The position numbers and the translations under genes are program-made. From the NCBI GenBank assembly GCA_050951325.1, contig JBMNIW010000012.1, forward strand, positions 64,001 through 128,000: a stretch of DNA of 64,000 nt, in the 5' to 3' direction. Shown piece by piece: positions 31,117 through 63,640 of this stretch (its first letter is position 1; each line of letters opens with the position of its first letter). The notes below the pieces were generated by a model. It saw only the letters and a list, made by a program, of their open reading frames with translations. It searched no databases and was not told the DNA's origin. This stretch comes from Clostridia bacterium. GTDB taxonomy: Bacteria; Bacillota; Clostridia; UBA1212; DUPL01.

Positions 31117-31223
31117 CTAATCCCACCCGACAACATACTGTTAAGTCCAGTCTATAGACTGTATATGCACATGTCAACTGCGATAATTGAAAGAATCCAC
31201 TCATTAATATGTAAATTCCACTT

Positions 31224-32036: not shown

Positions 32037-32200
32037 CCCCCTGTTTTAACCCCTGTTTTTACTCGGACCAATTAATTATACCACACTTGTTGTGTTGAAA
32101 TAGCCTAAAAAAACTTAATGAATTCCACCCCTTTAATTAATTGGTCCGTGTGATAAGATTTATTTAAACATACCGTATAATCACAAAGGGGGTTATATAA

Positions 32201-32929
32201 ATGAGAAAAACTTGGTTTTTGTACGCATTGGTCCTAATCCTTATCCTTTCAAGTTGTACACCCGTTGATGAAGATAAGGATGGTGCTAAATCAACACCCA
32301 CACTATCTATAAGGACTGAAGCCCCGGGTACTACAGAAACACCTGATAAAGAGCCCACTTCGGAACCTACTGAAGAACCATCACCCGAGCCGGTTCCAAC
32401 GGTTGAACCAGGCAAGGAAACGTATGCAGAGGGAATTAAGGATCCTGACAAGGGAGCCAGGTACACTTTCAGACCTTCAAAGGGACGTCCCGACCATATC
32501 ATGATTAACGAGTCATTGGCCACTCAGTTCTTTGCAACGACCACCTTCAATAAACTTGAGTTGGAATGTCCAAGTTACCATGACAATATTGGTACTATTG
32601 TAATGGAGCTTTACAGATGGATGGGCTCATACGACCTTACTTTGGACAAAGATAGCAATCCTCCAGTTGTTGTAGAAGAATTTGTGGATTACCCCGACAA
32701 TGCAATTCTTGCAATTGAGCTTGACGAACCTTTGGTTGACGGTGAGTACCTGCTCTATCTTACAACTCCCGATCCAGCAGAACAGGTTGGTGTTTGGGCA
32801 ACCTATGAAGCGGAAAATTTGCATACAAGAACATACAAGGACAACGAGGAATTTGAAGGAGTAGGTTTTGGTCCAATAATCTACTACACAAAGACGCCCA
32901 ACAAACTTTACGGACCAATTTCAGGCTAA
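32201..32929 (+). CDS. Lipoprotein with Pro/Thr/Glu linker
   Basis: Lipobox LSSC; LYRW..SY...GEYLL domain. Confidence 0.75.
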   Translation: MRKTWFLYALVLILILSSCTPVDEDKDGAKSTPTLSIRTEAPGTTETPDKEPTSEPTEEPSPEPVPTVEPGKETYAEGIKDPDKGARYTFRPSKGRPDHIMINESLATQFFATTTFNKLELECPSYHDNIGTIVMELYRWMGSYDLTLDKDSNPPVVVEEFVDYPDNAILAIELDEPLVDGEYLLYLTTPDPAEQVGVWATYEAENLHTRTYKDNEEFEGVGFGPIIYYTKTPNKLYGPISG

Positions 32930-32943
32930 AGGAAAGCAATATA

Positions 32944-38496: not shown

Positions 38497-38504
38497 GAGT
38501 ATTG

Positions 38505-38537
38505 AAAAATGCCAGAGGTTTTAGCCTCTGGCATTTT
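38505..38537. terminator. Bidirectional terminator
   Basis: AAAATGCCAGAGG-tttag-CCTCTGGCATTTT between convergent genes. Confidence 0.8.
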
Positions 38538-38539
38538 AT

Positions 38540-40096: not shown

Positions 40097-40097
40097 T

Positions 40098-41372
40098 TTA
40101 TTCTCTTCCTTTCTTGCTTCTGATAATTATGAACACAATTGCAGCTACTGCAATTATTGCCACTACAACAACACCAATAATTATACCAGTATTACCTTTG
40201 TCATCTTTTTCGCCTGTTTCGGTTGGCTTTTCCGTCTCGGCGGCAGTCTGAGTAGGAGTGGTTTCCAAAGTCGGAGTAGGTTCTGGTGTTTCTGTCGGCT
40301 CCGGGGTATATACAGGTCTTTCATCAAGCTCGGCAAAAAGATTTTCAATTATGTCGAGTTTTAAGGTGCCTTCTTCATACACGTCTCCATCCAGATATGA
40401 TGTAACTCCTTCTTTTGTTGCATGCGCCCAGAGGTTAAGACCATCATAACAAGAAATTTCAACCAGATAGTCTCCAAGAGCATAAGCCCTGTCAAAACGC
40501 ACATAGAAGTGCTCGTATTGTCCAGGACCGCCGGACTCGGCTTCAATGACATTGTGGTAAATTGGAGTCTGGCTTGTAGTGGTGTCATAGTCGTCTTTCC
40601 ATTTATACACCTTCAGTTCAATCTCACCATACCCTGTCTCAAGGAACAAATCATTGAAAACGATTCCTGTAAACTTCCCGTTCTTTACTGAAAATTTATG
40701 AGCCACACTTGCATAGTTTCCAACCTGAATGTAGCTGAGGCCATCTGCAGAAGCACCGTTTCCATATGCCGCTATAATTACTTCCTGTGAATCAATATTG
40801 GTATTAGGTTCTTCGTTAAGTTCTGCCGCAGGGTCTACTATGCAGTTAATTCTATACGATACATTTTCATAAACTTCCTGCTCAAAGTACGCAACACTGT
40901 CAGAATGTGCAGCATGGGTTGGTATATGCAAGGGATTTCCTGACAACCTATAGTATACCAACAGGTACTCACCTTCAGCAAAAGCCCTGTCAAAATCAAC
41001 CGTGAAGTCTGCTTCACCGGGATTCACCCATCCCTGGGACACAGAATCTTCTATCATGTCTGAGAAGATTGGTGATCCTGAGATTGTTGTCCGATAGTCC
41101 GTATCCCATTTATACAGTATGAGGGCGGTGGACATGGGGGCTGCATACCAGCTGGGTACTACCAGTCCGACGAACTTTCCTCCTTTTACATTAAGACGTA
41201 CAGCCACTATTCCTTCACCAGTGTTTTTGAATCTGCTTCCATCTGGAGCTTCTTCATCACTGTACATTTTTATTAAGCTTTCTTCTGCGTGTATGCCTCC
41301 AAAAGAGGCAAGACACAGTATGAGTGCTAGGGTAAATAAAATCATTCTGGTTATGTTCTTCATTATGTACAC
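40098..41372 (-). CDS. Membrane-anchored surface protein with two internal domain repeats
   Basis: Signal peptide, two YKWxxDYxTT...FDRA..G.YL repeats, PT linker, TM + basic tail. Confidence 0.75.
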   Translation of the reverse strand: MYIMKNITRMILFTLALILCLASFGGIHAEESLIKMYSDEEAPDGSRFKNTGEGIVAVRLNVKGGKFVGLVVPSWYAAPMSTALILYKWDTDYRTTISGSPIFSDMIEDSVSQGWVNPGEADFTVDFDRAFAEGEYLLVYYRLSGNPLHIPTHAAHSDSVAYFEQEVYENVSYRINCIVDPAAELNEEPNTNIDSQEVIIAAYGNGASADGLSYIQVGNYASVAHKFSVKNGKFTGIVFNDLFLETGYGEIELKVYKWKDDYDTTTSQTPIYHNVIEAESGGPGQYEHFYVRFDRAYALGDYLVEISCYDGLNLWAHATKEGVTSYLDGDVYEEGTLKLDIIENLFAELDERPVYTPEPTETPEPTPTLETTPTQTAAETEKPTETGEKDDKGNTGIIIGVVVVAIIAVAAIVFIIIRSKKGRE

Positions 41373-41610
41373 CTCGCCAAATATTTTTATCCTCCTTTAT
41401 TACCTATAATATATCATATATTTGAGAAAAATCGTTTAAAAAAATGTCGTAACAAAAGTGTTCAAATATATATGGATGGCATAATAAAAATAATTTAACA
41501 AAAGGAATGCAACGGAGGTTATTAGCTACCGTTTCTTGTGATAAATGCAGATTGATTCTATTGTTATAAAATTCAAATTGTGTTAGAATTTGAATCAAGG
41601 AGGAAGAGAC

Positions 41611-42489
41611 GTGCACAAACTTTACAGAGGACAAGATGAATACGGAAGAAGAGAGGTTGCGGAATACAGATATATCGACAAGAACTTCCCTTTGAAAATA
41701 GGGAGGGTTGTGTATCTTAGAAAATGCATCCCTCTTGGAACTGAGATTCACAAGGACGCCTTTGAGATTACTTACATGACCAAGGGCAAACAAATTTACG
41801 AGGTCGAAGGCATAAAGCACACGGTTTATGCAGGAGAAACCTTCATTACTCTTCCTGATGAAGAACACAGTACCGGTGGAGAACCTTTCGACAAGTCAGA
41901 GTTTTTCTACATGATAGTTGAACTAAAAAACTTCCCCGAATACTTTCTTTCTCCAACAAAAGATGAAAGAAAAAGTCTTCTTGATGCATGTATTGAAACC
42001 TTCAAGGAAAACAGAATTATTCAGCTTGGTTTTGAAGCTCATCACTACTTTAATACTATACTGGAAACATTTGAATCAGACAGCCCTTTCAAAATGACTA
42101 TTGTAAGGAATGCTCTTACTGATTTGTTGATTATGATGCTTGATAGCTCCAACGTTAAAAAGGAAACCAAAGATCCTTTCCTCACGCCTGTATTGGAATA
42201 TATTGATGAGAATTTTGAGTCTCACATAGACATGCAGTATCTTGCCGACATGGCAGGTGTAAGCAAGTCAAGGTTTCAAAAGAAATTCAAGGAGTATACG
42301 GGTTTTCCACCAAGGGAATACATCATGAGAAAAAAGGTGGAAAGGGCAAGAGAACTCTTGGACAATTCAGACCTTACAGTAACCGACATTGCTTTCATGC
42401 TTAACTTCTCATCTTCCCAATATTTCAGTACAGTATTTAAGCAGTATACAAATATAACGCCAGTGGAATACAAGAATAGTAAGAAATAA
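41611..42489 (+). CDS. AraC-family regulator
   Basis: HKDAFEI cupin; IAFMLNFSSSQYFSTVFK..TP.EYK; start inferred from RBS. Confidence 0.88.
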   Translation: MHKLYRGQDEYGRREVAEYRYIDKNFPLKIGRVVYLRKCIPLGTEIHKDAFEITYMTKGKQIYEVEGIKHTVYAGETFITLPDEEHSTGGEPFDKSEFFYMIVELKNFPEYFLSPTKDERKSLLDACIETFKENRIIQLGFEAHHYFNTILETFESDSPFKMTIVRNALTDLLIMMLDSSNVKKETKDPFLTPVLEYIDENFESHIDMQYLADMAGVSKSRFQKKFKEYTGFPPREYIMRKKVERARELLDNSDLTVTDIAFMLNFSSSQYFSTVFKQYTNITPVEYKNSKK

Positions 42490-42522
42490 GGTCGAAAGTT
42501 ATAACCTTCCGACCTTTTTGCT

Positions 42523-45500
42523 TTACTTCAATATTTCAACTATTGGTTTTTCAAGGACTCCCATGTCTTTCAGGCTGTACTCATAACTCCAGCTGTCGCC
42601 TGTTGTCCTCCATGCATCAGGACCAAACCACCATGTCTTTTCATTGCAGTTATGCAGTGTTCCAAAAGAGTTGTGGCGGTTTCCGTACAGTACAAGTCCA
42701 AGAACATGCTTTCCTTTCTTCACATTTGGTATTACCAATTCATATGGAGCGTATACAATCTTTCCAGCTTCCTTGGAGTCGAGCAATACCTTGACAAGAG
42801 ATCCTCTGTATTTTGGAATCCTTACTCTTAATGCGCTGTCTTCCTCAAGCTCAATTTCATTATGATAAACAATATTTGCACCATAGAAAGGCATTCCCTG
42901 GTCAGTTATTGTTCCGTAACGCACTTTGTCGCTTCTTTCAGTTATTGTCTTCTTTGTTCCTTCAACAACAACGCCAAAGTCTCCTAAAATATAGCACCAT
43001 TCAACATTTGTGCGCTTTCCAAATGGAATTGAAACTTCAAGGATGTTCGTACCCTTTTTTATCTCAGGCAGCCTTACAGTCTTTATGGCTTCGTCTGTAA
43101 ACCAGCCAACAACCTTGCTCGCAACCTTTTCACCATTGAAAACAATTTCAATCCTTTCAGCATCCTCTATGGCAAGCAGAGGTTCCTTTACAGTTATCTC
43201 ACTGTGTATTGTAAACCTGAGTCTTGCTTTGTGGACAATCTCCTCTTCTTCAACCGTCCAGGGCTGAGGAAATGCGCTTCTTCTAAGCTGCCAGCCGAGT
43301 CTTTCCCTCAGTTTGTTGTCAGCTCTCAATATCTCTTCAGCTTCGTTGTACTCTTCATCATCAAGAGCATACTCGGCAATATCTAGAAGATACACATTAG
43401 GCTCCTCAAGGGTATACGATACATTATCCATGATTTCAACCTTTTCAAGTTTTCCAAGTCTTAAGAGCAAGCTGTCGTAGGAGTGCAGTTTTGCATACAC
43501 AACTGTATTCCCGTTTTCATAGGAGAATTCTGCATCCTTTACCTCTCCATTAATCGTGTCATATACTTTCGGATAATACTCACCCTTGATTACAATCTTG
43601 AGATTTTCAGCCTGAGTATCTTCCTTGTCATTTACATGAACACCTCTTGCTATAAACAGCCACATGCAGTTTTCATCATCACGCAAGTTGTAGAGGTACT
43701 TGTCACTTATTTCATTATCCTTGTAGATGTTTATAATCTTATCTTCACCAAGGACTTCAAGTATCTTCTCCCTTTCGAAAGGAACCTTTATGCTGTCATT
43801 GTAAAGAGCTTCAATTTCATTGGTTGCAGTCGCATCCATGTATTTTGGACACTCTCCAACAAAAACAATCTTGCCGCCCTTTTCCTTGAATGCCTTGAGT
43901 CTTTCATAAGTGGTTCTGCGCATGGTTTCCATTCCAGGAACTATGATTGTATCATATTCCATTTCTCCCACTTTGAGGGGACTGCCAGCTTCCTTGCAAA
44001 GGTCAGGCAAAATAGATTCTGCTATAAAATCAAAGTCTACCTGTCCAAGCAAAAGCCATTTGGTTATATTCTGAAAGTTGTGCTCCAGAGCCCATCTCTT
44101 TTCTGATGTTGTATCTTCCGGACCCAGATGCAGCCAGTAACTCTCAACAGGGTGTACAACTCCAACCTTTACAACCGGCTTGCCACGGGTTAATGCGGTA
44201 TTCAGTCTTGCAAAATGATCCTCTACATAGGAATACTCCTTGTACCATGGTGATTGATAGTTTATTGTTGCTGGATAGTCTCTCTTTGACTCTCCGGCCA
44301 TGGACACCCAGGACAAATGATGAACCCTCACAGTAACGCCCAAGGCCGCCTGCCAGTCTCCCTGGAACTTGTGTCCTCTAAAATCAAAAACCCAGTTCGT
44401 TACACCATAAAGTTCGGAAAGAACTCCTTCTCTTCCATATTGATGTGCAGCAGATTGCGCCTGCTTTGCTGTAGTATATTCAGTTGCATCGCAGAGCATA
44501 TCAATACCTGGCAGCTGGAAGGACCTATAATGTCTCATTGTTTCTCCTATGGCATAGCTTTGAGACAGAAGAGTAGGCTCTTCCATCATGTGGCCTGTCA
44601 GCATTAGATTATTTTCTTCACACCAATCTCCGCACTGATCTGAAAAACACCTTGAAAACAGTTCGGTCGTATAATCACTGTAATGATATTTAACTCTTGA
44701 GACCTTGCCTCCTTCAAGCGACCATATCAGCTCGGGCAGGTAATCAAGGATGTCGTAACCGTACTCTTTTTTGAATCCTTCAATGAGGTGGTGTGTCCAA
44801 GGCAGTACTGTTCTTTCCTTGGCCAATGCCTTTTTCATGTAATGTCTTCTATGAACCTGAGGCTCGTCGGTAAAGATTGCAGGTACACTTTCTCCAAATT
44901 TGTCACCTACCGCCTCTTTGTATGCCTCATAGGTAATATCTATGAATTTCTTCATCGACTCTTTGTCCAGTGTATCTACATATGCCTGGTTATTGAACCA
45001 AGGGTTGTCTCCCCCTATTTCAAGGAATGCATACCATTTGTTGCCTCCTTCTTCGTCCCTTCCTATCCTTGTGTATGATGCGAGTTCACCCCTGTCATTA
45101 AGGACTATATCATAGCTTGCAAAGAAGAATGGCTTTCCCGTTTCAAGACATTCTTCCAATGTTTTTGCATCGTCTTGTTTGTCTTCAGGGTTGAAGGTCA
45201 TAATCTTAACCCTGTGTCTCTTTTCCTTTGTCACAAGACCTCCTGCAAAGCCTGATGGCCATCTGTCTTCATCATATAGCCAGGCAAGCATTTCTTCCTT
45301 TTCTGCTTTTTTGACGCAGAACTTTACAAGGTCCATAAATTCCTCTCCCAGGTACTCGTTTGCCATACCAGTCCTTGAATGCATGTGGAATCCCCCAAGA
45401 CCCATTTCCTTCATATATTCAATCTGTCTGCCCAAAATGTCTTTGTTCAGCTTGCAGTTCCAAGCCCAAAAGGGTGTTCCCCTGTATTCAGCAGTTGGAT

Positions 45501-45552
45501 TTTTAAAAAGTTTTTCATCAAGCTCTTTTGACTTGTTCTTTTTGTAAAGCAT
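42523..45552 (-). CDS. GH106-like (alpha-L-rhamnosidase-type) glycosidase
   Basis: PFWAWN, LYDEDRWPSGFAGG, FTDEP, PGIDML, LSELYG. Confidence 0.8.
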   Translation of the reverse strand: MLYKKNKSKELDEKLFKNPTAEYRGTPFWAWNCKLNKDILGRQIEYMKEMGLGGFHMHSRTGMANEYLGEEFMDLVKFCVKKAEKEEMLAWLYDEDRWPSGFAGGLVTKEKRHRVKIMTFNPEDKQDDAKTLEECLETGKPFFFASYDIVLNDRGELASYTRIGRDEEGGNKWYAFLEIGGDNPWFNNQAYVDTLDKESMKKFIDITYEAYKEAVGDKFGESVPAIFTDEPQVHRRHYMKKALAKERTVLPWTHHLIEGFKKEYGYDILDYLPELIWSLEGGKVSRVKYHYSDYTTELFSRCFSDQCGDWCEENNLMLTGHMMEEPTLLSQSYAIGETMRHYRSFQLPGIDMLCDATEYTTAKQAQSAAHQYGREGVLSELYGVTNWVFDFRGHKFQGDWQAALGVTVRVHHLSWVSMAGESKRDYPATINYQSPWYKEYSYVEDHFARLNTALTRGKPVVKVGVVHPVESYWLHLGPEDTTSEKRWALEHNFQNITKWLLLGQVDFDFIAESILPDLCKEAGSPLKVGEMEYDTIIVPGMETMRRTTYERLKAFKEKGGKIVFVGECPKYMDATATNEIEALYNDSIKVPFEREKILEVLGEDKIINIYKDNEISDKYLYNLRDDENCMWLFIARGVHVNDKEDTQAENLKIVIKGEYYPKVYDTINGEVKDAEFSYENGNTVVYAKLHSYDSLLLRLGKLEKVEIMDNVSYTLEEPNVYLLDIAEYALDDEEYNEAEEILRADNKLRERLGWQLRRSAFPQPWTVEEEEIVHKARLRFTIHSEITVKEPLLAIEDAERIEIVFNGEKVASKVVGWFTDEAIKTVRLPEIKKGTNILEVSIPFGKRTNVEWCYILGDFGVVVEGTKKTITERSDKVRYGTITDQGMPFYGANIVYHNEIELEEDSALRVRIPKYRGSLVKVLLDSKEAGKIVYAPYELVIPNVKKGKHVLGLVLYGNRHNSFGTLHNCNEKTWWFGPDAWRTTGDSWSYEYSLKDMGVLEKPIVEILK

Positions 45553-51967: not shown

Positions 51968-52786
51968 CTACAAATCAAGTATTGCCTTTTTTAGTGTCTC
52001 AACTGCCGTGTAATCCTTTACGCATTCAAGCTTCAGCATGGGTATGCTCGTTACCATGTCGTCAATATAATCCAGGGCATAGTTCATAAGCTCCACACTC
52101 CACTTTGGAGCAAATACATGTTCAGCAAGGTTTAGAAATGCTTCATAGGGATTTAGTCTTGTTGCCATGTTTCGTTTACTCTTTTCCAGCATGACAAATA
52201 CATCAATCTTTATCTTTCGATTCACAAATTCTCCTGATGTCCCGCACCAAGGCTGACCGAAGGCATGCCATACACCTTCGACTTTACGGCATAATGCTCT
52301 ATCCCCGTTTATGACCAATGCGTTTTCATAATCTCTCCACATTCTTGCATGGGTGGTCTTTCCACCAGCTGACTCCGCACATAGGATGATCCCTTTTCCG
52401 TTCCATTCAAGTACAACACCATGAAACACAACTCCTCCATAAGGAAGAACTGCGTACGAGAAGGGCTTTTTTAGTTCGTAGTATATTACATGGTCGATCC
52501 TGTCATTTTTCTTGCCTGCATAGATGCTCCACTTTCTCCAATCCTTACTTGCACTTAGAACGTTCTGGTTCTTAAGCTCAATTTTGTAACCATCTTCTGT
52601 TACATCAACCACCTTGTCGTCTTCAATAGTAATACAATTATTGTCTAACACAACTTCCAGCTCAAAATCGCTATCTTTCTTGTCACAAACAAAAGATTTG
52701 AACGCAAGGGCATGAGGTGTAAACATATCCAAATCAGCTTTGATGCAATATCCGCCAATGTTTAAATATGTATACTCCACTTCCAT
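51968..52786 (-). CDS. HPr-kinase-like P-loop protein (PadeK/ScmC-like)
   Basis: FHGVV, AESAGGKTTH, NGDR, PWCGTS. Confidence 0.8.
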   Translation of the reverse strand: MEVEYTYLNIGGYCIKADLDMFTPHALAFKSFVCDKKDSDFELEVVLDNNCITIEDDKVVDVTEDGYKIELKNQNVLSASKDWRKWSIYAGKKNDRIDHVIYYELKKPFSYAVLPYGGVVFHGVVLEWNGKGIILCAESAGGKTTHARMWRDYENALVINGDRALCRKVEGVWHAFGQPWCGTSGEFVNRKIKIDVFVMLEKSKRNMATRLNPYEAFLNLAEHVFAPKWSVELMNYALDYIDDMVTSIPMLKLECVKDYTAVETLKKAILDL

Positions 52787-52791
52787 TTCAA

Positions 52792-53106
52792 TCAGCTCTG
52801 TAACTCTCCAAAATAGAAACCTGGATGTTTTGTATTACCTATATTATCTTTCATCCCATTAGCATAAGGATCAAAGGTTATGTCTTTATTTAGATATCTG
52901 TCGAGCAAGTCATCTATAGCTGCAAATACTGCGGCAGCACTACAATCATGCAGTGTTCCGCTATTAAAACTAACATTATATGATTTATTATCAACTTTTA
53001 GAGTCCCTTTAAAGTTAAAATGTTTGTAGCCAAAACACGTATCTGCAATGCTTTCCCCTAAGCAAATTTCTTCAAATCTTAACTTTGGCTTTTCATACAT
53101 TTTCAT
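52792..53106 (-). CDS. Putative RiPP-like precursor (104 aa)
   Basis: Leader YEKPKL...GESIADT, Cys24 and Cys55, C-terminal Ser; overlaps rSAM stop; GGAG RBS. Confidence 0.75.
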   Translation of the reverse strand: MKMYEKPKLRFEEICLGESIADTCFGYKHFNFKGTLKVDNKSYNVSFNSGTLHDCSAAAVFAAIDDLLDRYLNKDITFDPYANGMKDNIGNTKHPGFYFGELQS

Positions 53107-54163
53107 ATATTTCACTCCCTTTCGTTGAGATTAGCTTTTCTAATATCTTATGACTGTATTCAGCCTCTCGGCATAGATATTTTGGATTGCCAAATAAACT
53201 CTTTGTTTCACAGTATCTCAAGGCAGGACATGCCATGCAAAACAACTTATACTTGCAATCGCGACATGCGTCTATTTGCTTCAATTCAGGCACAGTTTCC
53301 ACAAATGTCTCCCAAGCCTTTTCAAAACCCTCGGTCAATGGATCTGTCATAAACTCTCCAAGCAATTGGCATCCAATTAATTTCCCATCCCAAGTAATTG
53401 TATATGACTGGATACCTGCGTCGCATCCAAATAATTCGCTCTTCTTTTCTTCTACTGTATATTCTATCTCTATTGGCTTATCAATTAAATCCTTCGACAA
53501 TCTCTCCAAATACGCTCCATAAATAAAATCAATATTCTCCTCAGGTGACAATCTGCATGCATCCACTTCAGCAATGCCATGGCGTGTGGTTCTACAAACA
53601 ATCCTGCTCCTGCTAAAAGTAATGTCCTCTCCAAAACTCTTTGCCAGCATATATATGTTTTTGTAATCTTCAATGTTGTCTTTAATAATCGTTGTTCTAA
53701 TATTAATTGATGAAGGCAAAGTCGTTAATTTCTTCACTCCATCCAGCATTCTGTAAAAAGCATTGCCGCTACCGCACACCTTATCATAAATGGATGGATT
53801 GGAGCCATAAACAGATATTCCAATCTGATGAGGAGGACACTTTTCCAACGCATCCATTACTTTGTCGCTGACAAGAGTTGCATTGGTGTACAGGACAATA
53901 ACAAATCCCATTTTATATATTTCCGTATAAATCTCGCAAAAGTCCTTTCGCAGCATAGGTTCTCCACCTGTCAGCAAAAGCTGCAATGTTCCGCAGTCCC
54001 TTGCCTGCTTTGCGAGATCAATCCACTCTTTGGTTGTAAGTTCCCTAAGGCCCAAACTGCTTATTGTGTCCTCATCCACCCTGACAAGGCACATTTTGCA
54101 TTTCAGATTGCACCTGGCAGTCAGTTCAAAGGTACCGTTTAAAGGTATTCTCTCTTCGTGCAT
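53093..54163 (-). CDS. Radical SAM/SPASM-domain protein
   Basis: CNLKCKMC, TGGEP, YTNAT, CDAG...DGKLIGC, CRDC...FCMACP..C...LC. Confidence 0.93.
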   Translation of the reverse strand: MHEERIPLNGTFELTARCNLKCKMCLVRVDEDTISSLGLRELTTKEWIDLAKQARDCGTLQLLLTGGEPMLRKDFCEIYTEIYKMGFVIVLYTNATLVSDKVMDALEKCPPHQIGISVYGSNPSIYDKVCGSGNAFYRMLDGVKKLTTLPSSINIRTTIIKDNIEDYKNIYMLAKSFGEDITFSRSRIVCRTTRHGIAEVDACRLSPEENIDFIYGAYLERLSKDLIDKPIEIEYTVEEKKSELFGCDAGIQSYTITWDGKLIGCQLLGEFMTDPLTEGFEKAWETFVETVPELKQIDACRDCKYKLFCMACPALRYCETKSLFGNPKYLCREAEYSHKILEKLISTKGSEIYENV

Positions 54164-54164
54164 T

Positions 54165-54437
54165 TTATTCCTCCTCCATAAGAATACCAAAAGTTTTGAG
54201 TTCCTCCAAAAAGTCACTTGCGTCACTTTTTGCAATCTCCAAAGGAACCTCATACTCCCTCATAATACAAGAGACCAGCTCTTCAAAACCCTTCTCCTCT
54301 TGGAGTACTTCGAATATATATGCGCCTGTTTCATTTAAGACCATAATACCGTTAGCTTTTTTTATTGCCTCTCCAAGTGGGACTATAATATATGCATCTC
54401 TAATTTTCCTCAGTACAAAATTTTGATTGACACGCAT
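54165..54437 (-). CDS. PqqD/RRE family protein
   Basis: FVLRKI, LNETGAYIFEVL, EYEV....A..D...FLEEL...GIL. Confidence 0.9.
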   Translation of the reverse strand: MRVNQNFVLRKIRDAYIIVPLGEAIKKANGIMVLNETGAYIFEVLQEEKGFEELVSCIMREYEVPLEIAKSDASDFLEELKTFGILMEEE

Positions 54438-54450
54438 TTGCAGCACCTCG

Positions 54451-54717
54451 CTATTCTTCCAGCATTTTTTGCTCTTTAAGGATGGATATGAATGCCTGGA
54501 CATCCTGACGAGCTTCCTCTTCCGTAACGTCATATTCACTTATCAGACTGTCAACTAGTTCGTCAAATGTAGTCTCTTCCATTAGTTTACCGAACAAAAA
54601 CGCTGCTGTATTATTAACTGCAATTACACCATCCAGGTCCACCACACTATCTTCTACTGGAATAATAACGTTAGTACCTGCGATTTTGCGCATAATGTAA
54701 TTTCCGCAAACCTTCAT
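54451..54717 (-). CDS. PqqD/RRE family protein
   Basis: YIMRKIAG, VNNTAAFLF, EYDV.EEEARQDVQAFI..L. Confidence 0.9.
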   Translation of the reverse strand: MKVCGNYIMRKIAGTNVIIPVEDSVVDLDGVIAVNNTAAFLFGKLMEETTFDELVDSLISEYDVTEEEARQDVQAFISILKEQKMLEE

Positions 54718-54739
54718 TAACCCTCCTCCCTTCTTAATA

Positions 54740-55630
54740 CTAACCAACATAGACCACAAGGCGCTGTGTAACACTCACCCCTTCCGAATTACTTACAGAA
54801 TAAGTGACAGTGTACTGACCTTCCTTATTCGTATCCACTTTGCCCGAGAAACCAACTAACTCCGTTAAATCACCATCCTTCTGATCATACGCACTCTTTA
54901 TATACTCATAAGGATTAAATACATCCCCTTTTTTCAAAGCCACGGTTTTTCTTGTAAGTATCAGGGTAGGGCCTGCACTACTACCTTCTACTTCAACAAA
55001 AATGGACTTGCTGGCAACATCGTTGAACATGTTTTGTACAGTGAAAGTAAATTTGTATTTGAAAGAGTCTGCAAATGCTTCATAGTTATACGAAATGGTC
55101 CGAGTAATGTCATTTCCAAAGCCGTCATCCGCCCTTATGGCATCCTTTTCAATCAGAACAGTCACCAAATCATCAAGATCCTCACTGGTTATTACAACAT
55201 CATTTGAAACATGTATTGACGGTCCTGTGTAGTTTATGAGGCTGAGGCGTCTTTCATTGATTGCTAAATTCCCATTTGAGCCAACCACGCTGTACCTTAC
55301 AATCTTCTTTCCAATTGAAGTGTCAGTAACAATAATTACATTGACCTGGTCGGTGATGTCTGTCTTGCCGTCGATATCCAAAGCAGTCACACCTTCCATA
55401 ATGTCAAAAGCCTCTTTTCCAGAGTACTTCATATCACCGAGCGAAAGTCTGATGGTTGGTTTCTTGTTTGAATCAACACCGCTAATGTTTGAAAGGCTCG
55501 CTTTAATAATATCCTTGTTGATTGCATATGCTATGTCCTGATGAAAAAAGTACAACATAAACAAACTGACTATCGATACTGCGGCAAGCACTATTATCGT
55601 TATATTCTTAACAATCTTCAATTGCATCAC
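54740..55630 (-). CDS. Membrane-anchored Ig-like repeat (DUF5011-like) protein
   Basis: N-terminal TM; three repeats GVTALDIDG.DIT / ADDGFGNDIT / AYDQKDGDLT...VDTNKEGQYTVTYSV. Confidence 0.75.
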   Translation of the reverse strand: MMQLKIVKNITIIVLAAVSIVSLFMLYFFHQDIAYAINKDIIKASLSNISGVDSNKKPTIRLSLGDMKYSGKEAFDIMEGVTALDIDGKTDITDQVNVIIVTDTSIGKKIVRYSVVGSNGNLAINERRLSLINYTGPSIHVSNDVVITSEDLDDLVTVLIEKDAIRADDGFGNDITRTISYNYEAFADSFKYKFTFTVQNMFNDVASKSIFVEVEGSSAGPTLILTRKTVALKKGDVFNPYEYIKSAYDQKDGDLTELVGFSGKVDTNKEGQYTVTYSVSNSEGVSVTQRLVVYVG

Positions 55631-55633
55631 CTC

Positions 55634-56845
55634 CTAATTAACAAGACCATATTCTTCAAGAAGAGCAAGCCTCCTTCTTGCAACACTCAAACCTTTAACC
55701 ATTCTAGGCTCTTCTGTTCTTCTCATATATTTAATAATTCTTAATACCCACACAACAGGAAGTAAAAAAGGATGTTTCTGAAGTACTGGGTACGAATATT
55801 TAAGATACTCTCTGGAAGGAAAGCATGCCTTCAAAAACCCGAAAATGACATTCCCTTTCTTCCTGTTTAAAGATGCCACCTGTACAACCGGTCCTGAAAA
55901 AACCCTCTCGCTACTGGACTTTCCAAACACTCCTCCTTCAATCATGTCAACAAGCAAAGCAGCACGGTTTGTTACTTTCAAACTTTTGCCAAAAGGAATG
56001 CCAGAAACGTCTAAACTTATCCCCAGTTCATTATTTCCTATGTCAAACAAGCAGTAAAGCAATTGCTCACAACCGAGTTCTCTAACTATTGCAATTATTT
56101 GCTCCCAGCAAATCTGCTCATAGTACTTTTTTGCATAAAGAACCGAATCCATACACTGCCTTATACCTACACCATAACTTATCAAGTGTTTATATAAGTG
56201 AAGGAAGATAAACAGGAAGTGATCCGTGTGACAAAGGGAGTATATTTCACATCCTTCGATTTCCAGCGTTATGCATCTATCAAAGGATTCCCTAAAGTAT
56301 TTATTAAGCGCCTTCCTTACACCCGATAAACCAAATGGATTAACATGCACTTCAATACATAGATTTAAATCAGGGGATATATATGAAATTGCCTGAGCAT
56401 CCTTTGGGTCTTTGTTTGCACTTGCTGCATCCACTTTGTATCCGTATCTTAAAAGCAAGTCATGGCAAAGATCATAATCTTCCTTTCGTATGTAAATATC
56501 TTCGTCAGAAGATGTCCGAAGATCCGGTGATTCATACAAACTTCTTACAACAAGACCTTTTAACACAAGAGGCTTAACTCCGTTTTGTACAAGATAATTG
56601 TACACCTTAATGAAAGCAAAAGTTCTTTTAGTCTGGCTTATCATGTTGTATAACGCCTGACTACGCATACTCTCTTTACCTTCAAACTCAAGCAAACTTG
56701 CAGCATCATAAACAAGAGGGAGAAGGTTGTGTTTGCGGGCAAGGGTAAATACCTCATCAAGGTCCACATCTAATTCAATATTCGGCTTTTGGTTTCTTAT
56801 ATGACTTTCAATAAGCTTCAAGAACGTCTTGTAGGTCGGGTTCAA
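55634..56845 (-). CDS. Nucleotidyltransferase family protein (NTP_transf_5-like)
   Basis: VLKG...LY...RTSSDEDI, IEVH, HLYKH...GVGIRQCMD; TTG start after GGAGG. Confidence 0.85.
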   Translation of the reverse strand: MNPTYKTFLKLIESHIRNQKPNIELDVDLDEVFTLARKHNLLPLVYDAASLLEFEGKESMRSQALYNMISQTKRTFAFIKVYNYLVQNGVKPLVLKGLVVRSLYESPDLRTSSDEDIYIRKEDYDLCHDLLLRYGYKVDAASANKDPKDAQAISYISPDLNLCIEVHVNPFGLSGVRKALNKYFRESFDRCITLEIEGCEIYSLCHTDHFLFIFLHLYKHLISYGVGIRQCMDSVLYAKKYYEQICWEQIIAIVRELGCEQLLYCLFDIGNNELGISLDVSGIPFGKSLKVTNRAALLVDMIEGGVFGKSSSERVFSGPVVQVASLNRKKGNVIFGFLKACFPSREYLKYSYPVLQKHPFLLPVVWVLRIIKYMRRTEEPRMVKGLSVARRRLALLEEYGLVN

Positions 56846-58586
56846 GACTTTCACCTCCGCCAAATAACGTACACTTGCCGCCACTTACTCGGTACACTCT
56901 GTCACAAATACCAAGCACGCTTGGCCTGTGTGTTGTAAGTATGCAGGTTACTTCGCCCTTTATCCTCTTTATATTCATCAGAATCTTTCTCTCGGTATCA
57001 ACATCGAGGCTGCTGGTGGCTTCATCAAGGAGCAGTATTGGAGCTTTCCTTATCAACGCCCTGGCAATAGAGAGCCTTTGTATCTGTCCTTCCGAAAAAT
57101 TCTTTCCTCTTTCCTCAACATTTGAGTTGATTCCATCCGGCAGGTTTGATACAAAATCATACGCATCTGCCATTACCAACGCATCCTTTATTTCCTCTTC
57201 TGTTGCATCGGGCTTTGCCAGTCTCAAGTTATCTGCAATTGTACCTGAGAATAACATATTGTCCTGAGGAACATAGGAAAAAAGAAGTCTTGCCTTGTCG
57301 TCAAACACAATGTTTTTATGCTTCTCGTTAAAGGGATAAATGCCAAGTCTTCCTTTTTGATGTTTTAATTGTCCAAGCAATATCTTAAGCAGGGTGGTTT
57401 TTCCTCCTCCCGAAGGACCAACCAGTGCAATGGTCTCCCCAGGCCTTGCCAGGATGCACGCATCTTCAAACACCTTCTTTCCTTTTCTGTAACTGAAGGA
57501 AACATCCTCAAGACTAATTACCACTCCTCTTTTCCTTGCACTTTTAAGTGTCTGCTCATCATTGGTAGCATCACAGTCATCTGTTGGCTTTTCAATGATT
57601 TCCATAATTCTTCCTGCTGATGTTGTTGCAGATATGGAAGATGGGATTAAGGATATTAAGGAAGAGAAGCTTGATCTGAGCATACCTGCGAGCTGCAGGA
57701 ACAATACCATTGTTCCAAAGGTAATGAAACCTTGGTACAATCTGAATACCGCCCAGCCAAAACAAAGATATGATACAATTAGTCCGGTTATCGACATAAA
57801 CAGATGAGTGTGTATTGAAAACTTGTTGTAGTCCAGGCTTGTTGTCTTAAAGTTTTCCAACTGCTCTTTGTGTCTGTTTGTAAATACAGACTTCAGCCCC
57901 AGAGCTTTAATAGCTGCAATATTTACAAAAGACTCTTCATGGTAGGACATAAGTTTCGAACTTGCTTCCCTCATTTTTTTGTTGTGCTTCCTCATTTTCT
58001 TTACCAGTAAATCCGATACAATCATTGATACTGGTGCACTGGCAAGAGCCAATATAGCCATAACATAGTCAAAGTACATGATGATTATAAATGAGCCGGT
58101 AAACTGCAATACCCTTGTTATGAAGCTTGGTATCATGCCTACAACACTACCCGCAACAGTCCTTGCATCAGAGTTGATTCTATTTAGAAGGTCTCCTGAA
58201 TGAAAGTCCATTAAATGCTCCGAGTCAATATTTAATATGCTGTCATAGATGTCTATTCTTATGTCATTTATTACCCTTAAATCAATTTTTGAGGTAATCC
58301 TGTTGGTTAGTGCTCCTGTCAATATCTCAAACAAACCAAAAGATATGTATATTACTGCTATCGTGACAATAACTTTTATCTGCCTGTTTGCAAGGCTGTC
58401 TATTAAATATTTGGAGGCAACAGCATTGAGAAGCCCGAATATTGCGCCAATGGAAAAGAGGAAGATATAAAATGCGACTTGTGCTTTATATCTTTTTATG
58501 TACCCTAATATCCATTTTGCCTCTATCCACATTTCTTTTAAAGACCCGTCTTGGATCTTCCTCTTTATGTTAAACAGATTCACCAT
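56808..58586 (-). CDS. ABC exporter, fused permease/ATPase, no C39 peptidase domain
   Basis: Six-TM domain, GPSGGGKTT, FSEGQ, LLLDEATSSLD. Confidence 0.92.
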   Translation of the reverse strand: MVNLFNIKRKIQDGSLKEMWIEAKWILGYIKRYKAQVAFYIFLFSIGAIFGLLNAVASKYLIDSLANRQIKVIVTIAVIYISFGLFEILTGALTNRITSKIDLRVINDIRIDIYDSILNIDSEHLMDFHSGDLLNRINSDARTVAGSVVGMIPSFITRVLQFTGSFIIIMYFDYVMAILALASAPVSMIVSDLLVKKMRKHNKKMREASSKLMSYHEESFVNIAAIKALGLKSVFTNRHKEQLENFKTTSLDYNKFSIHTHLFMSITGLIVSYLCFGWAVFRLYQGFITFGTMVLFLQLAGMLRSSFSSLISLIPSSISATTSAGRIMEIIEKPTDDCDATNDEQTLKSARKRGVVISLEDVSFSYRKGKKVFEDACILARPGETIALVGPSGGGKTTLLKILLGQLKHQKGRLGIYPFNEKHKNIVFDDKARLLFSYVPQDNMLFSGTIADNLRLAKPDATEEEIKDALVMADAYDFVSNLPDGINSNVEERGKNFSEGQIQRLSIARALIRKAPILLLDEATSSLDVDTERKILMNIKRIKGEVTCILTTHRPSVLGICDRVYRVSGGKCTLFGGGESLEPDLQDVLEAY

Positions 58587-59997: not shown

Positions 59998-61411
59998 GAC
60001 GCACCTCCTTTGTGTCGTCTTTCTTCTTATACAAAGGGACTCTTCTGTAATAGTAGCTTTTATACATGTTGTTTTTTAGAGAGTTAATAAAAGGAAAACC
60101 TTTAAGATTGTTTAAAACAACGCCAAGCAAATGGCATTTGCTTTGCTCCAGTCTGTCAATTGCATCATTTATTTCTCCAACTCTTGCAAAGTCCTGTTTA
60201 ACTACTAGTATTGAAGCATCTGTAATGTTTGCGAGTATTTCTCCATCGGACACTGCACTAAGCGGCGGTGTATCTATGATTACGAAGTCCATTTCCTTTG
60301 CGTATCCGTCCAAAAGATTTTGAAAATCCTTGCTTGCAAGAATCTCTGCAGAGTCTTTGTATGATTCCTTGTTCAGCATGAGCCATACATTGCTCCTTTC
60401 ATCAACTTTTGGTTTTTTCCCCTGGATGAAATCCCTAAAACTACCTGCATCCTTTTTCCCTAGTATTTTGTACAACGCAGGCTTTTTTAGATCCGCATCC
60501 AACAGTAGAACTTTATGGTTGTTCTCAGCGAGAGTTAGCGCAATATTTGCACACACTGTGGACTTTCCTTCGTTTTCATTTACGCTTGTAACCAGTATGC
60601 TTTTCAATCCCATACGTTGGCAGCTGTTTTCTATTTTCATGCACAATTTTTTGTATGAGCATACAAAATCAAAACTTGCAAACATATCAGTAACAAGTGG
60701 CGTTCTCTTTGCCCGCTTTATAATCTGCCTTATGGTTTTGTACTTTTTCTCATGCCTTATGGTTGAAAGCAGTTTTGTATCCAGCTTGGAATTTGCTTGT
60801 TTTTCATTCTTTACAGTATCCCTAAAGTATGAAAGAGCACAAACTGCACAGGTTGACAAAAACGCACCTGCTGCAAAGGACAGTTTTTTTATCCTTGACT
60901 CATCCATGCTGTTTACCGGCCACCCTGACATCTCAATGTCTTCAATGACTTCAAGGTGCGCATTCCCATATATGTAATCAGACACAAGCCGGTAGTTTTC
61001 AATAATGAGCTTCAAGGTCTTGAAAGCATCTTCAGGATTTTTGGCTGTTACTCCAACCACCAAAAGGTTTGTTTCAGGTATGGCGTAGGCATCAATTTTA
61101 CCAGGAAGTTCATCATACCCTGCAATTTGAGACGCTTTCTCCTTCAAAATATCACTGTCCATTATTTGGGTGAAAATGTTTGCCATTTCTATCGTGGTAC
61201 TTAGATTGGCATACATGGAACTGGTTGCGTCTTTTGTACTCACTACAAATGTAACCTGACTTCTGTACTCAGGCACATATGTGTATCTGACATATGATAC
61301 TGCAAGCATCGCAACAACCGCTCCGCCAAGTACTATTGCCCACAAGTTGAAAAGAATATCTCTCAGCAAAGTAAAGATATCGATATCTTCGACACTAAAC
61401 TCTTTCTCCAT
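59990..61411 (-). CDS. Wzz/CpsC-CpsD fused BY tyrosine kinase (copy 1)
   Basis: TSVNENEGKST, LDADLKKP, IIDTPP; Tyr tail MYKSYYY. Confidence 0.9.
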   Translation of the reverse strand: MEKEFSVEDIDIFTLLRDILFNLWAIVLGGAVVAMLAVSYVRYTYVPEYRSQVTFVVSTKDATSSMYANLSTTIEMANIFTQIMDSDILKEKASQIAGYDELPGKIDAYAIPETNLLVVGVTAKNPEDAFKTLKLIIENYRLVSDYIYGNAHLEVIEDIEMSGWPVNSMDESRIKKLSFAAGAFLSTCAVCALSYFRDTVKNEKQANSKLDTKLLSTIRHEKKYKTIRQIIKRAKRTPLVTDMFASFDFVCSYKKLCMKIENSCQRMGLKSILVTSVNENEGKSTVCANIALTLAENNHKVLLLDADLKKPALYKILGKKDAGSFRDFIQGKKPKVDERSNVWLMLNKESYKDSAEILASKDFQNLLDGYAKEMDFVIIDTPPLSAVSDGEILANITDASILVVKQDFARVGEINDAIDRLEQSKCHLLGVVLNNLKGFPFINSLKNNMYKSYYYRRVPLYKKKDDTKEVRHG

Positions 61412-62247
61412 TACGCATTCCCTTCTTCAACAACACATACCATGCTTGTTGTATAGGTTTCGGCACCTTCGCTCACACTATAGTAGATTTTGTACTCTCC
61501 TGGCTTGGATGTGTCCAGATCGGAATAGATATTCACATGGGAGATGTCAAGAAACAGACCGTCAATGCCCGTTACAGACTGTATGTAATCTTTTGGGTTA
61601 ACTTCCTCACCAGTATTTACATACAAAACGTAACTCTCCAGTTTAATCTTTGGCGTTTTGACATTCCTTTCCCTGACCACCACCTCAAAGCTCAAATCCA
61701 CCACATCGCCTTTTGAATTTGTAACCTTGGCATTTACTGTGTACACTCCGGGTACATTTGTTGTCAGATTGCCAATGTCATACTTTATCTTGTTGCTTAT
61801 GTCCCCATCGATGAGACAATAGCATTTTATGAAGTCTTCCATGTTTATAGTACTGCCGATATAAAACTGTGGTTCATGGTCAATTTGAAATCTTGGTGAT
61901 TCGTAGTCTGTGTACTTTACCTTTCTTGTAAGTTTGGACACGTTGTTATCGCTGTCGCACACCGCATACGTTATGTTGCATACGCCCTTCTCAAGAAACT
62001 TTGATACGTTTTCAATGAGTATTTTGTCAGTCACATCCCCATCCTTGTCGTCATGGGCAGACAACCCTTCAAACAACTTGTCCTTATCCATAATGCTCAC
62101 CTCAATTACTTTACGGTCGCTTGTTATGCTCGGATATGTTCCATTGGTTTTTACTCCGTACACTCCAAACTGGATAAAGTAAAAGATGCCTGTCACAATG
62201 GACAAGAGAAAGACAACCATTCTGAAAATTTTCACAAAAACCCCCAC
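61411..62247 (-). CDS. Membrane-anchored Ig-like repeat (DUF5011-like) protein
   Basis: N-terminal TM; AHDDKDGDVT, IDGDISNKI..PGVYTV, LDTSKPGEYKIYYSV. Confidence 0.75.
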   Translation of the reverse strand: MGVFVKIFRMVVFLLSIVTGIFYFIQFGVYGVKTNGTYPSITSDRKVIEVSIMDKDKLFEGLSAHDDKDGDVTDKILIENVSKFLEKGVCNITYAVCDSDNNVSKLTRKVKYTDYESPRFQIDHEPQFYIGSTINMEDFIKCYCLIDGDISNKIKYDIGNLTTNVPGVYTVNAKVTNSKGDVVDLSFEVVVRERNVKTPKIKLESYVLYVNTGEEVNPKDYIQSVTGIDGLFLDISHVNIYSDLDTSKPGEYKIYYSVSEGAETYTTSMVCVVEEGNA

Positions 62248-63057: not shown

Positions 63058-63086
63058 ATTATATCAGTGCAATTTATTAAAGTAAA
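63058..63086 (-). promoter_or_regulatory. sigmaA promoter of the 14-gene operon
   Basis: TTTACT-N17-TATAAT with extended TG. Confidence 0.6.
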
Positions 63087-63148: not shown

Positions 63149-63640
63149 CTACTCTTTCCCTTTAATAAGCGCTTCTTTATCAAGCACTGCAAGTTTTACA
63201 TCAATGTCATAATCCTGAAGAAATTCTTTAATTGCAGAGGTAGCCACTTTAAGCGCTTCATCTTTAGGATAGCCATATATTCTGCTTGATATTAAAGGAA
63301 AAGCTATGCTTTTACATTCATGCTCCACAGCCAGTTTCAATGAGTTTGTATAAGCATTGTGTAAGAGACGCAGATTATCCTCTTTACTCCACTGGCTGTA
63401 TATGGGTCCTGCAGTGTGGATTACATACTTTGCAGGCAGATTAAAGCCAGGGGTAATAACTGCTTCTCCTGTTTTTATGGGTGCAAGTTTGTTGCATGCT
63501 TCTTGAAGTTTGCTTGCTCCGGCAGCTCTAAAAATAGCTCCGCAAACACCGCCACCCATTTTTAGCTGGGTGTTGGCAGCGTTGACAATCGCATCCACCT
63601 TCAATTTTGTTATGTCCTGCTGAACAATCTCAAATGACAT
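63149..63640 (-). CDS. Macro domain protein
   Basis: DIT, AIVNAAN, GGGVCGAI, VIHTAGP, SIAFPLIS. Confidence 0.92.
   Translation of the reverse strand: MSFEIVQQDITKLKVDAIVNAANTQLKMGGGVCGAIFRAAGASKLQEACNKLAPIKTGEAVITPGFNLPAKYVIHTAGPIYSQWSKEDNLRLLHNAYTNSLKLAVEHECKSIAFPLISSRIYGYPKDEALKVATSAIKEFLQDYDIDVKLAVLDKEALIKGKE

Follow-up and report, generated by a model that had tools for sequence, protein, structure and literature searches.

The question raised by this locus is what is done to a single serine residue. In a stretch of 64,000 nucleotides from a Clostridia bacterium, which we call the window, the region 51968..56845 encodes a peptide of 104 residues that ends in serine (Ser104), a protein resembling HPr kinase and a nucleotidyltransferase. 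An earlier note on this DNA had combined the three into a phospho-serine linkage handle: the kinase would phosphorylate the C-terminal Ser, and the nucleotidyltransferase would then join the peptide through a phosphodiester to a sugar, a lipid carrier or a wall polymer, explaining the CpsB and Wzc proteins encoded nearby. Our own reading, to which we give a probability of about one half, is that the locus encodes a maturation pathway for a ribosomal peptide that is related to the linear polyphosphorylated peptide (LPP) pathway of Bacilli, that includes a radical S-adenosylmethionine (radical-SAM)/SPASM enzyme in addition, and that would yield a product phosphorylated on Ser104.

The operon is a compact test case, as the kinase, the nucleotidyltransferase, the radical-SAM enzyme and a bacterial tyrosine kinase (BY-kinase)/phosphatase module free of glycosyltransferases fall in one transcription unit, and the acceptor candidate is clear, the last residue of the peptide being its single invariant Ser. 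We know of no biological role for LPP or for the phosphorylated lasso peptides, and of no settled function for the nucleotidyltransferase that accompanies them. The identity of whatever is attached to the Ser would tell free peptides from peptide-decorated surface polymers in cassettes that are widespread in gut and rumen Clostridia, and it would also show why such clusters for RiPPs (peptides made by the ribosome and modified after translation) recur in capsule loci. If the peptide were joined to a polymer, a ribosomal peptide would be bound covalently, as an integral component, into a capsule-like surface layer of gut Clostridia.

The precursor peptide ends in an invariant serine

The region is the downstream half of one operon of 14 open reading frames (ORFs) that run on the minus strand from 62963 to 51071 (Table 1). 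Because neighbouring genes overlap or are separated by no more than 22 nt, and because terminator-like sites within the operon are no commoner than in shuffled sequences, we assign all 14 genes to one operon, and the precursor, the kinase and the nucleotidyltransferase are accordingly predicted to share a single transcription unit. The gene assignments in the earlier note were borne out: the precursor does end in Ser (...GELQS), the HPr-kinase-like gene does follow it directly, opening 5 nt past the precursor stop codon, and the nucleotidyltransferase is part of the same operon. The precursor ORF has the sequence GGGAG 8 nt upstream of its ATG and overlaps the stop codon of the radical-SAM gene by 14 nt.

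Related loci were identified by scanning genomes with an alignment of the kinase. The scan gave 20 loci including L008, which repeats L001, a locus found earlier with a single kinase sequence, and the set comprises 20 distinct related loci. An ORF homologous to the precursor was sought directly upstream of the kinase gene with a hidden Markov model built from six sequences, and it was found in 18 of the 20 loci, the exceptions being L014 and L021. An in-frame extension upstream of the L014 kinase was considered as a precursor and rejected, as it is not precursor-like. It can be seen that all 19 syntenic precursors, those of the 18 related loci and that of the window, end in Ser, even though the preceding residues differ (GSNS, PIVS, PVHS, IDRS, PRNS, PSNS, VPKS, IDKS, PSYS, PIHS, IPQS and FIKS among the relatives). 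In an unselected alignment of 17 precursors (A4) the invariant columns are Y4, P7, A21, C24, N88 and S104, so that S104 is the sole invariant Ser or Thr and, the leader Tyr aside, the only conserved hydroxyl residue. A second cysteine, C55, is kept in at least 90% of the sequences. The conservation on which the idea of a serine handle depends was therefore found. Because it is strictly conserved, Ser104 is predicted to be the likeliest site of phosphorylation.

The leader has the family consensus YESPxFxFQELxLxERVADxCWG, in which the YxxP element is present, an FETxxS element is absent and no Ser or Thr is conserved at the junction of leader and core. Scans of the 17 precursors against Pfam and NCBIfam assigned no family and returned only weak EF-hand matches (EF-hand_6 in 3/17), and a word-based protein search with the precursor returned only the precursor itself. 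When the precursor profile was searched against 1.84 billion representatives at E<=1e-3, 171 matches were obtained, of which 150 were listed. Among the 150 matches listed, 104 are short proteins and 76 of these 104 end in Ser; of the listed matches of 85-140 residues, 75/96 end in Ser, a further eight have Ser as the penultimate residue, and several of the listed matches without a terminal Ser look truncated. The family comprises at least 100 clusters at 50% identity. The long proteins found by the profile, giant repeat proteins among them, match only through a DxDxDG segment resembling a calcium loop. Most precursor relatives (for example L015:5387-5689 and L011:2947-3270) carry such a segment, DxDxDGxxD, which is also the source of the weak EF-hand matches, and the window copy has lost its acidic residues.

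We also examined the codons used for the terminal Ser. All 19 syntenic precursors use AGC or AGT (52795-52797 in the window), whereas elsewhere in the precursors from the 18 related loci only 55/117 Ser codons (47%) are AGY. More distant precursor-like ORFs beside other cassettes end in a Ser encoded by TCC in three of four cases (L024, L025 and L012), and the fourth (L031) ends in Ser-Ala. Since the codon class is frozen within the family and both classes are used across families, selection at the end of the precursor appears to act on the amino acid Ser itself. The alternative that AGC-TGA forms a signal at the level of the DNA was rejected, since the stop codon is either TGA or TAA, the spacing to the next ATG varies and the distant families use TCC.

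The putative kinase has a predicted HPr kinase fold

The kinase had no local Pfam match, and its only NCBIfam match was to ScmC (E 1.6e-4), no kinase family scoring above its cut-off. With a profile built from 21 members of the kinase family, the four best matches in the PDB were all HPr kinase/phosphatases (HprK/P; E 4.5e-4 to 2.9e-3), in alignments that span the P-loop stretch HGV...G.GKT only. An AlphaFold2 (AF2) model of the protein (pLDDT 83, pTM 0.83) matched phosphoenolpyruvate carboxykinases together with the HprK/P chains 1kkl, 1kkm, 2qmh, 3tqf and 1jb1 at about E 1e-5; we take these two groups of proteins to belong to one fold group. In the family alignment G142 and K143 of the Walker A motif and D162 are invariant, and H146 is nearly so. 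The family proteins also carry the precomputed label PF27840.1. We conclude that the 272-residue protein is, as judged from the model, an HPr-kinase-fold P-loop kinase, and it is rather probable that the peptide is phosphorylated by it.

It is very unlikely, in our estimation, that this protein is no protein kinase at all and serves instead as an ATP-binding scaffold, or as a phosphorylase or phosphatase comparable to the reverse reaction of HprK/P, so that the peptide would carry the radical-SAM modification only. The restriction of the sequence likeness to the P-loop would fit such a role, as would the lack of a Pfam or NCBIfam kinase family above cut-off. So too would a Gly-Asp pair that follows the P-loop in the family (positions aligned by eye), where one of two acidic residues is replaced by Gly in 21/21 members; HprK/P presumably has Asp-Asp there. 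The acidic pair with which we compared it in a RiPP-modifying kinase is D158/D159 of PsmK (PMC6993621). Set against this are the invariance of G142, K143 and D162, the near invariance of H146 and the confident match of the fold, and homologous HprK-like proteins are reported to be proven kinases in three RiPP pathways (PMC13381572, PMC6993621).

A cassette of putative maturation genes is conserved in Clostridia

The related loci all come from metagenome-assembled genomes and isolates of Clostridia type, including Lachnospiraceae, Anaerostipes, Sharpea, Fusibacillus and Butyricicoccus. In these the order PqqD, radical SAM, precursor, kinase and peptidase is kept: a radical-SAM gene is present in 18 of the 20 loci, a PqqD gene in 17 and a gene for a peptidase resembling signal peptidase I (SpI) in 16, and three of the four loci that lack the last stop at the end of a contig. 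The radical-SAM enzyme, which lies directly upstream of the precursor and had been left out of the chemistry proposed in the earlier note, shows in its translation a CxxxCxxC motif and a Cys pattern of SPASM type. Among solved proteins it comes closest to PqqE (E 9.4e-14) and SkfB (E 7.6e-10), and its NCBIfam matches (ScmE, WgkB, PqqE, StsB and others) are all far under their cut-offs.

The SpI-like peptidases share the motifs SGxSMxP, LHR and GDxN...D (alignment A5, 15 sequences). The catalytic Ser34 and His71 are kept in 14 of the 15 proteins, and the one exception, which lacks both, is the second copy in the window (51481-51071). In this copy Asp and Arg replace the catalytic Ser and His and the C-terminal helix is missing, so that it is probably a non-catalytic pseudo-peptidase. 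Recognition element 1 (the first of two PqqD-type RiPP recognition elements, RREs) and the first peptidase (51953-51483) are the orthologues of the single copies in related cassettes. The operon thus carries one SpI-like paralogue and one diverged PqqD more than the related cassettes, which have one of each, and the extra pair might hold the precursor without cutting it.

The precursor family was found in none of 44 other genomes of the order to which the window belongs, the genome of the window being the sole representative of its taxonomic family in this search, which suggests that the cassette was acquired horizontally. The genome of the window itself has one cassette, and a second match to the profile there resembles an ordinary HPr kinase. 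It is highly probable, in our estimation, that the locus encodes a leader-guided RiPP pathway with cleavage of SpI type.

The nucleotidyltransferase accompanies a capsule-type module

NTP_transf_5 is present in 14 of the 20 related genomes and CpsB in 16. We surveyed ten regions with CpsB, NTP_transf_5 or another kinase homologue on one contig, and found that a module of CpsB, an Ig-like protein, Wzc1 and Wzc2 recurs, with Wzc proteins that match those of the window at E 1e-70 to 1e-98. The module is complete in L024, L025, L027, L028 and L029, and in L026 it runs off the stretch examined; its gene order varies, L024, L026, L027 and L028 keeping that of the window. Orthologues of the first Ig-like protein of the window (62247-61411) lie in or beside the module in L024-L029 and in L033, those of the ABC (ATP-binding cassette) exporter (E 1e-140 to 1e-169) lie near module genes in L024, L025, L027 and L033, and a homologue of the second Ig-like protein adjoins CpsB and NTP_transf_5 in L027. 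Elsewhere the module is flanked by LytR-CpsA-Psr (LCP), Bac_transf, Polysacc_synt_2, CapD-like and sortase genes.

Cassettes of other subtypes, with radical-SAM, kinase, PqqD and peptidase genes, lie near the module in L024, L025 and L033. L025 is a co-directional array of 12 genes: ABC, priming sugar transferase, Ig-like, Wzc, Wzc, CpsB, CapD-like, peptidase, PqqD, a precursor-like ORF that ends in NHS, radical SAM and kinase. Linkage between a cassette and capsule-type regulators was seen in 8 of the 20 genomes as well as in the window. We conclude that this linkage is real and recurrent, and the association with CpsB and Wzc partners that had been pointed out for this locus is indeed repeated in other genomes.

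Two further regions are of note. L030 (G007:C34:1-20000) has two kinase/radical-SAM cassettes, an ABC gene in two pieces and CpsB alone without Wzc, followed by enolase. On this showing the PHP phosphatase may itself be part of the phosphopeptide pathway. In L027 (G004:C49:10000-29999) the module lies beside LCP and sortase genes, a lasso-type transglutaminase-like B2 protease, two PqqD genes and two copies of NTP_transf_5, an arrangement that resembles the capsule-embedded lasso and LPP loci of Bacilli.

The nucleotidyltransferase lies beside the module in L026-L029, and its link to the capsule module is no looser than its link to the kinase. As in L026, L028 and L029 it adjoins the module with no cassette in the stretch examined, it may serve the CpsB/Wzc module. 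A possible alternative to our reading, to which we give clearly less than even odds, is that two functionally separate modules chance to share the operon, one of capsule type (CpsB, Ig-like, two Wzc, ABC, NTP_transf_5 and Ig-like) and the other a horizontally acquired radical-SAM/kinase cassette, and that the nucleotidyltransferase never touches the peptide. Only three of the 20 loci (L001, L002 and L010) have NTP_transf_5 within 6 kb of the primary cassette, the other 17 being without it at this distance, and this fits the alternative as well as do the three loci just named, the absence of the precursor family from the 44 other genomes of the order, which indicates acquisition, and the occurrence of the module elsewhere among ordinary capsule genes (LCP, Bac_transf, CapD-like). 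Several observations speak against it. All 14 genes of the operon are translationally coupled or nearly so, and cassettes adjoin CpsB or the full module in L024, L025, L030 and L033 also, in L025 within one co-directional array. Moreover, the LPP and paeninodin clusters of Bacilli, with NTP_transf_5, are reported to sit in capsule loci too (PMC13381572), and PsmN is described as acting on a phosphopeptide (PMC6993621). That the nucleotidyltransferase of the window acts on a phosphate at the terminal Ser seems to us possible and rather doubtful. Our literature search found no paper on NTP_transf_5 (PF14907) bearing on this topic.

A proposed pathway and the points that weigh against it

What we obtained here is gene content, folds, synteny and conservation, and every chemical step in the following scheme is inferred. 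A discrete PqqD-type RRE would bind the YxxP leader of the 104-residue precursor, as expected from what is known of the family. The radical-SAM/SPASM enzyme would then make a cross-link through C24, C55 or both. The HPr-kinase-fold enzyme would phosphorylate Ser104, possibly several times, which is suggested by the conservation of this residue and by the kinases of paeninodin and pseudomycoidin. The SpI-like peptidase with Ser34, presumably a Ser/His/Asp enzyme, would remove the leader in the manner of LppS, and the MsbA-like ABC protein would export the product. Least secure is a step in which NTP_transf_5, like PsmN, might attach another group to the phosphate. CpsB, the Ig-like protein and the two Wzc proteins would constitute a capsule-type phosphoregulatory module that is recurrently linked to such cassettes.

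A number of points weigh against this reading. The pathway steps proposed for the precursor/kinase family are predictions from sequence, fold and analogy. The window precursor is divergent, being only 20-29% identical to the others, with CFG in place of CWG and no acidic DxDxDG loop, and its AF2 model is of low confidence (pLDDT 66), with no more than a hairpin and a helix followed by a tail whose pLDDT is below 50. To these are added the Gly-Asp pair of the kinase, the small number of cassettes that have NTP_transf_5 close by and the occurrence of NTP_transf_5 beside the module in L026, L028 and L029. Finally, in the closest characterised pathway the residue to which LppK attaches several phosphates is Ser3 of the core, and deletion of lppN is reported to have changed nothing (PMC13381572). 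Of the combined claim that kinase, nucleotidyltransferase and C-terminal Ser form a linkage handle, the conserved Ser thus stood, while the acceptor used by LppK, the lppN result and the presence of NTP_transf_5 near only 3/20 cassettes told against the remainder.

The example of LppK also raises the alternative that the kinase targets a residue other than the last one, such as a Ser or Thr by the leader cleavage site as in LPP, and that the terminal Ser is instead a partner in the radical-SAM cross-link, a mark recognised by the exporter or the peptidase, or a point of ester or acyl attachment. This we consider unlikely. An S3A substitution abolishes phosphorylation by LppK (PMC13381572), in the window precursor S19 and T23 shortly precede the invariant C24, and its leader layout, YxxP...E..A..C, resembles the LPP motif. 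However, across the family no Ser or Thr is conserved near the leader-core junction, where T, K, Q, V, E and P all occur at position 23, the terminal Ser remains the sole conserved hydroxyl once the leader Tyr is set aside, and the characterised lasso-associated HprK-like kinases are reported to use a C-terminal Ser (PMC6993621). Phosphorylation at Ser104 therefore stays our preferred reading, with about even chances for the terminal Ser as the site.

The furthest extension of the scheme is that a Ser104 phosphate or polyphosphate serves as the handle for NTP_transf_5, such that a radical-SAM-cross-linked peptide of about 80 residues would be joined by a phosphodiester to a sugar, a lipid-linked polymer or a surface polymer, with assembly and export under a dedicated CpsB/double-Wzc module. 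We consider this full scheme improbable, and a covalent link of the peptide to a polymer or lipid is likewise a long shot in our view.

Organisation of the operon and its surroundings

The features of the operon are listed in Table 1.

Table 1. Predicted genes of the 14-gene operon, in order of transcription, with the promoter-like site upstream (positions in the window).
Feature	Position	Strand	Basis or remark
Promoter-like site TTTACT-17-TATAAT with TG, upstream of the first gene (cpsB)	63058..63086	-	consensus match only; count of such sites in the region not above shuffles
CpsB-type PHP phosphatase, 243 aa	62232..62963	-	PF19567 E 6.4e-65, 219 bits; Cps4B NF041488 E 2.7e-48, under its cut-off
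Membrane-anchored Ig-like protein, 278 aa, fixed member of the CpsB/Wzc module	61411..62247	-	PF16403 E 6.8e-16
Wzc-like fused chain-length/tyrosine autokinase 1, 473 aa	59990..61411	-	TIGR01007 118.5 bits (cut-off 108); Wzz PF02706; Walker A and C-terminal Tyr cluster in translation
Wzc-like tyrosine autokinase 2, 475 aa	58570..59997	-	TIGR01007 113.2 bits (cut-off 108); Tyr-rich C-terminus; 27% identity to autokinase 1 (paralogue)
MsbA-like ABC exporter, 592 aa, without peptidase domain	56808..58586	-	ABC_membrane and ABC_tran; MsbA-type NCBIfam matches under cut-offs
NTP_transf_5 nucleotidyltransferase	55634..56845	-	PF14907 E 2.3e-42; D-E-D motif in translation
Second membrane-anchored Ig-like protein, 296 aa	54740..55630	-	PF16403 E 3.5e-15; weak paralogue of the first
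PqqD-type RRE 1	54451..54717	-	PF05402 E 5.8e-15; orthologue of the single PqqD in related cassettes
PqqD-type RRE 2, diverged paralogue	54165..54437	-	PF05402 E 2.2e-13; 36% identity to RRE 1
Radical SAM/SPASM peptide maturase (predicted), 356 aa from ATG 54163	53093..54163	-	PF04055 E 8.7e-20
Precursor (predicted), 104 aa	52792..53106	-	YxxP leader, C24, C55, C-terminal Ser104
HPr-kinase-fold P-loop kinase (predicted), 272 aa	51968..52786	-	profile and AF2 fold match; Walker A AESAGGKT
Archaeal-type signal-peptidase-I-like (SpI) leader peptidase (predicted), 156 aa	51483..51953	-	PF00717 27 bits; TIGR02228 E 2.7e-7, under cut-off; Ser34, His71, Asp
SpI-like paralogue, 136 aa	51071..51481	-	TIGR02228 E 3.5e-7; Asp/Arg at catalytic Ser/His positions; without C-terminal helix

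The nucleotidyltransferase probably starts at TTG 56845, upstream of which lies GGAGG, whereas the longest ORF opens at GTG 56884; a sequence search for solved relatives of this protein gave no match at E<=1. For RRE 1 the closest solved relatives of PqqD type are the lasso B1 proteins TfuB1, PbaB1 (9x90) and TbiB1, the top row of that search being an unrelated repeat protein.

Among the ORFs scanned at 29767-64000 there is no recognisable glycosyltransferase, flippase, polymerase, LCP protein, priming transferase (Bac_transf), Polysacc_synt_2 protein or sortase, and no recognisable glycosyltransferase, flippase or polymerase is encoded in the 14 kb beyond the high-coordinate end of the window; several ORFs in the stretches scanned have no Pfam match. 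About 6 kb past that end (L023 5322-7398, G000:C12:133322-135398) there are a second, shorter CpsB, a CpsD-like ATPase and a NusG paralogue. The flanks (29767-45552 in the window and L023 2752-5226) are rich in glycoside hydrolases (GH20, GH127, GH106-like, GH88 and BNR), which serve the degradation of glycans and not their synthesis, and include an AraC regulator. A macro-domain gene resembling O-acetyl-ADP-ribose deacetylases (63149-63640, minus strand) lies between a strong terminator-like hairpin (63709-63680) and the promoter-like site of the operon, and is probably a separate unit.

Comparison with known systems

The upstream half of the operon recalls the CpsB/CpsC/CpsD (Wzc/Wzb-like) systems in its PHP phosphatase and in its proteins with Wzz and BY-kinase domains and C-terminal Tyr clusters, and the same module occurs in other Clostridia with LCP, priming transferase and CapD-like genes. 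It differs from them in that the kinases occur as a pair and form single proteins with their membrane modulators, that an Ig-like membrane protein is a fixed member, and that recognisable glycosyltransferase, flippase and polymerase genes are lacking from the ORFs scanned in and beyond the window as given above.

In pathways of sactipeptide and ranthipeptide type a radical-SAM/SPASM maturase forms thioether links to Cys in a Cys-bearing core. The cassette may or may not be of this type: its enzyme has radical-SAM and SPASM-type Cys motifs, with PqqE and SkfB as the closest solved proteins, and its precursor has two conserved Cys (C24 and C55), and the RRE of the window is discrete and not fused. 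The SynChlorMet system (SCM, TIGR04248-TIGR04251) is made up of a PqqD-like protein, the HPr-kinase-like ScmC and radical-SAM/SPASM enzymes around a small peptide. ScmC, ScmD and ScmE are indeed the best or near-best NCBIfam matches of the window proteins. The scores, however, are far under the family cut-offs (ScmC 21.2 against 125 bits, ScmE 111.2 against 400, ScmF 64.9 against 400 and ScmD 19.3 against 100), and by score the cassette is therefore not assigned to SCM; it also has one radical-SAM gene where SCM has two.

The lasso peptides provided the precedents named in the earlier note, and these were given correctly. PsmK places multiple phosphates on the C-terminal Ser of pseudomycoidin, PadeK being the corresponding kinase for paeninodin, the peptide studied by Zhu et al. 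(2016). One or two hexoses are added to the pseudomycoidin phosphate only when PsmN, an NTP transferase described as uncharacterised, is present (Zyubko et al., 2019, PMC6993621). The window has in common with these clusters an HprK-like kinase, a strictly C-terminal Ser, an NTP-transferase homologue and PqqD-type proteins comparable to B1, its RREs scoring best against lasso B1 structures. On the other hand, no macrolactam synthetase (asparagine-synthase-like) or B2 cysteine protease (transglutaminase-like) is found among the 14 operon proteins, the precursor has 104 residues against about 40, a radical-SAM enzyme is present and the leader would presumably be removed by a serine peptidase.

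The closest parallel is with LPP. The core genes of that pathway encode the SpI-like peptidase LppS, the RRE LppB, the HprK-like kinase LppK, the NTP transferase LppN and the MsbA-like LppD, and the clusters, which are found in Bacilli, often lie within capsule loci (Popov et al., 2026, Nat Commun, PMC13381572). LppS, for which S29, H68 and D93 are essential, cuts after T-1 and requires LppB; the precursors have 35-200 residues with the motif YxxPxVLxHQxIxFETxxS and highly variable C-termini; and the supplement names the transferase domain as NTP_transf_5 and counts 140 such domains around 126 SpI genes (PMC13381572). A counterpart of every LPP core gene is present in the window: a SpI-like Ser/His/Asp peptidase, whose Ser34 and His71 match the essential residues of LppS, two discrete PqqD RREs (PF05402), an HprK-like kinase beside the precursor, NTP_transf_5 and an MsbA-like exporter. 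The long precursor with its YxxP leader and the capsule-type surroundings are further points of likeness. LppB (9x8z) was not among the PDB matches of the RREs at E<=1, whereas the lasso B1 proteins were.

There are also differences from LPP. In LPP phosphorylation is the primary modification, with no second enzyme that modifies the core, whereas in the window and 18 of the 20 relatives the gene directly upstream of the precursor encodes a radical-SAM/SPASM enzyme. The family lacks the FETxxS part of the leader and the core Ser3, and it has an invariant C-terminal Ser and two conserved Cys where the LPP C-termini are highly variable. It occurs in Clostridia and LPP in Bacilli, and NTP_transf_5 is no constant member of its cassettes. 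The text of the LPP paper mentions neither radical SAM nor Clostridia, and 'Radical_SAM' is found just once, heading a column of the supplement's total domain matrix (PMC13381572); our literature search found no description of a radical-SAM/HPr-kinase/PqqD precursor variant, and where HPr kinase is treated together with radical-SAM RiPPs the kinase is mentioned for lasso clusters only. Because a radical-SAM/SPASM enzyme is present and the YxxP leader comes without FETxxS or a junction Ser/Thr, we conclude that the cassette is a radical-SAM variant of the LPP kind and not a member of LPP itself.

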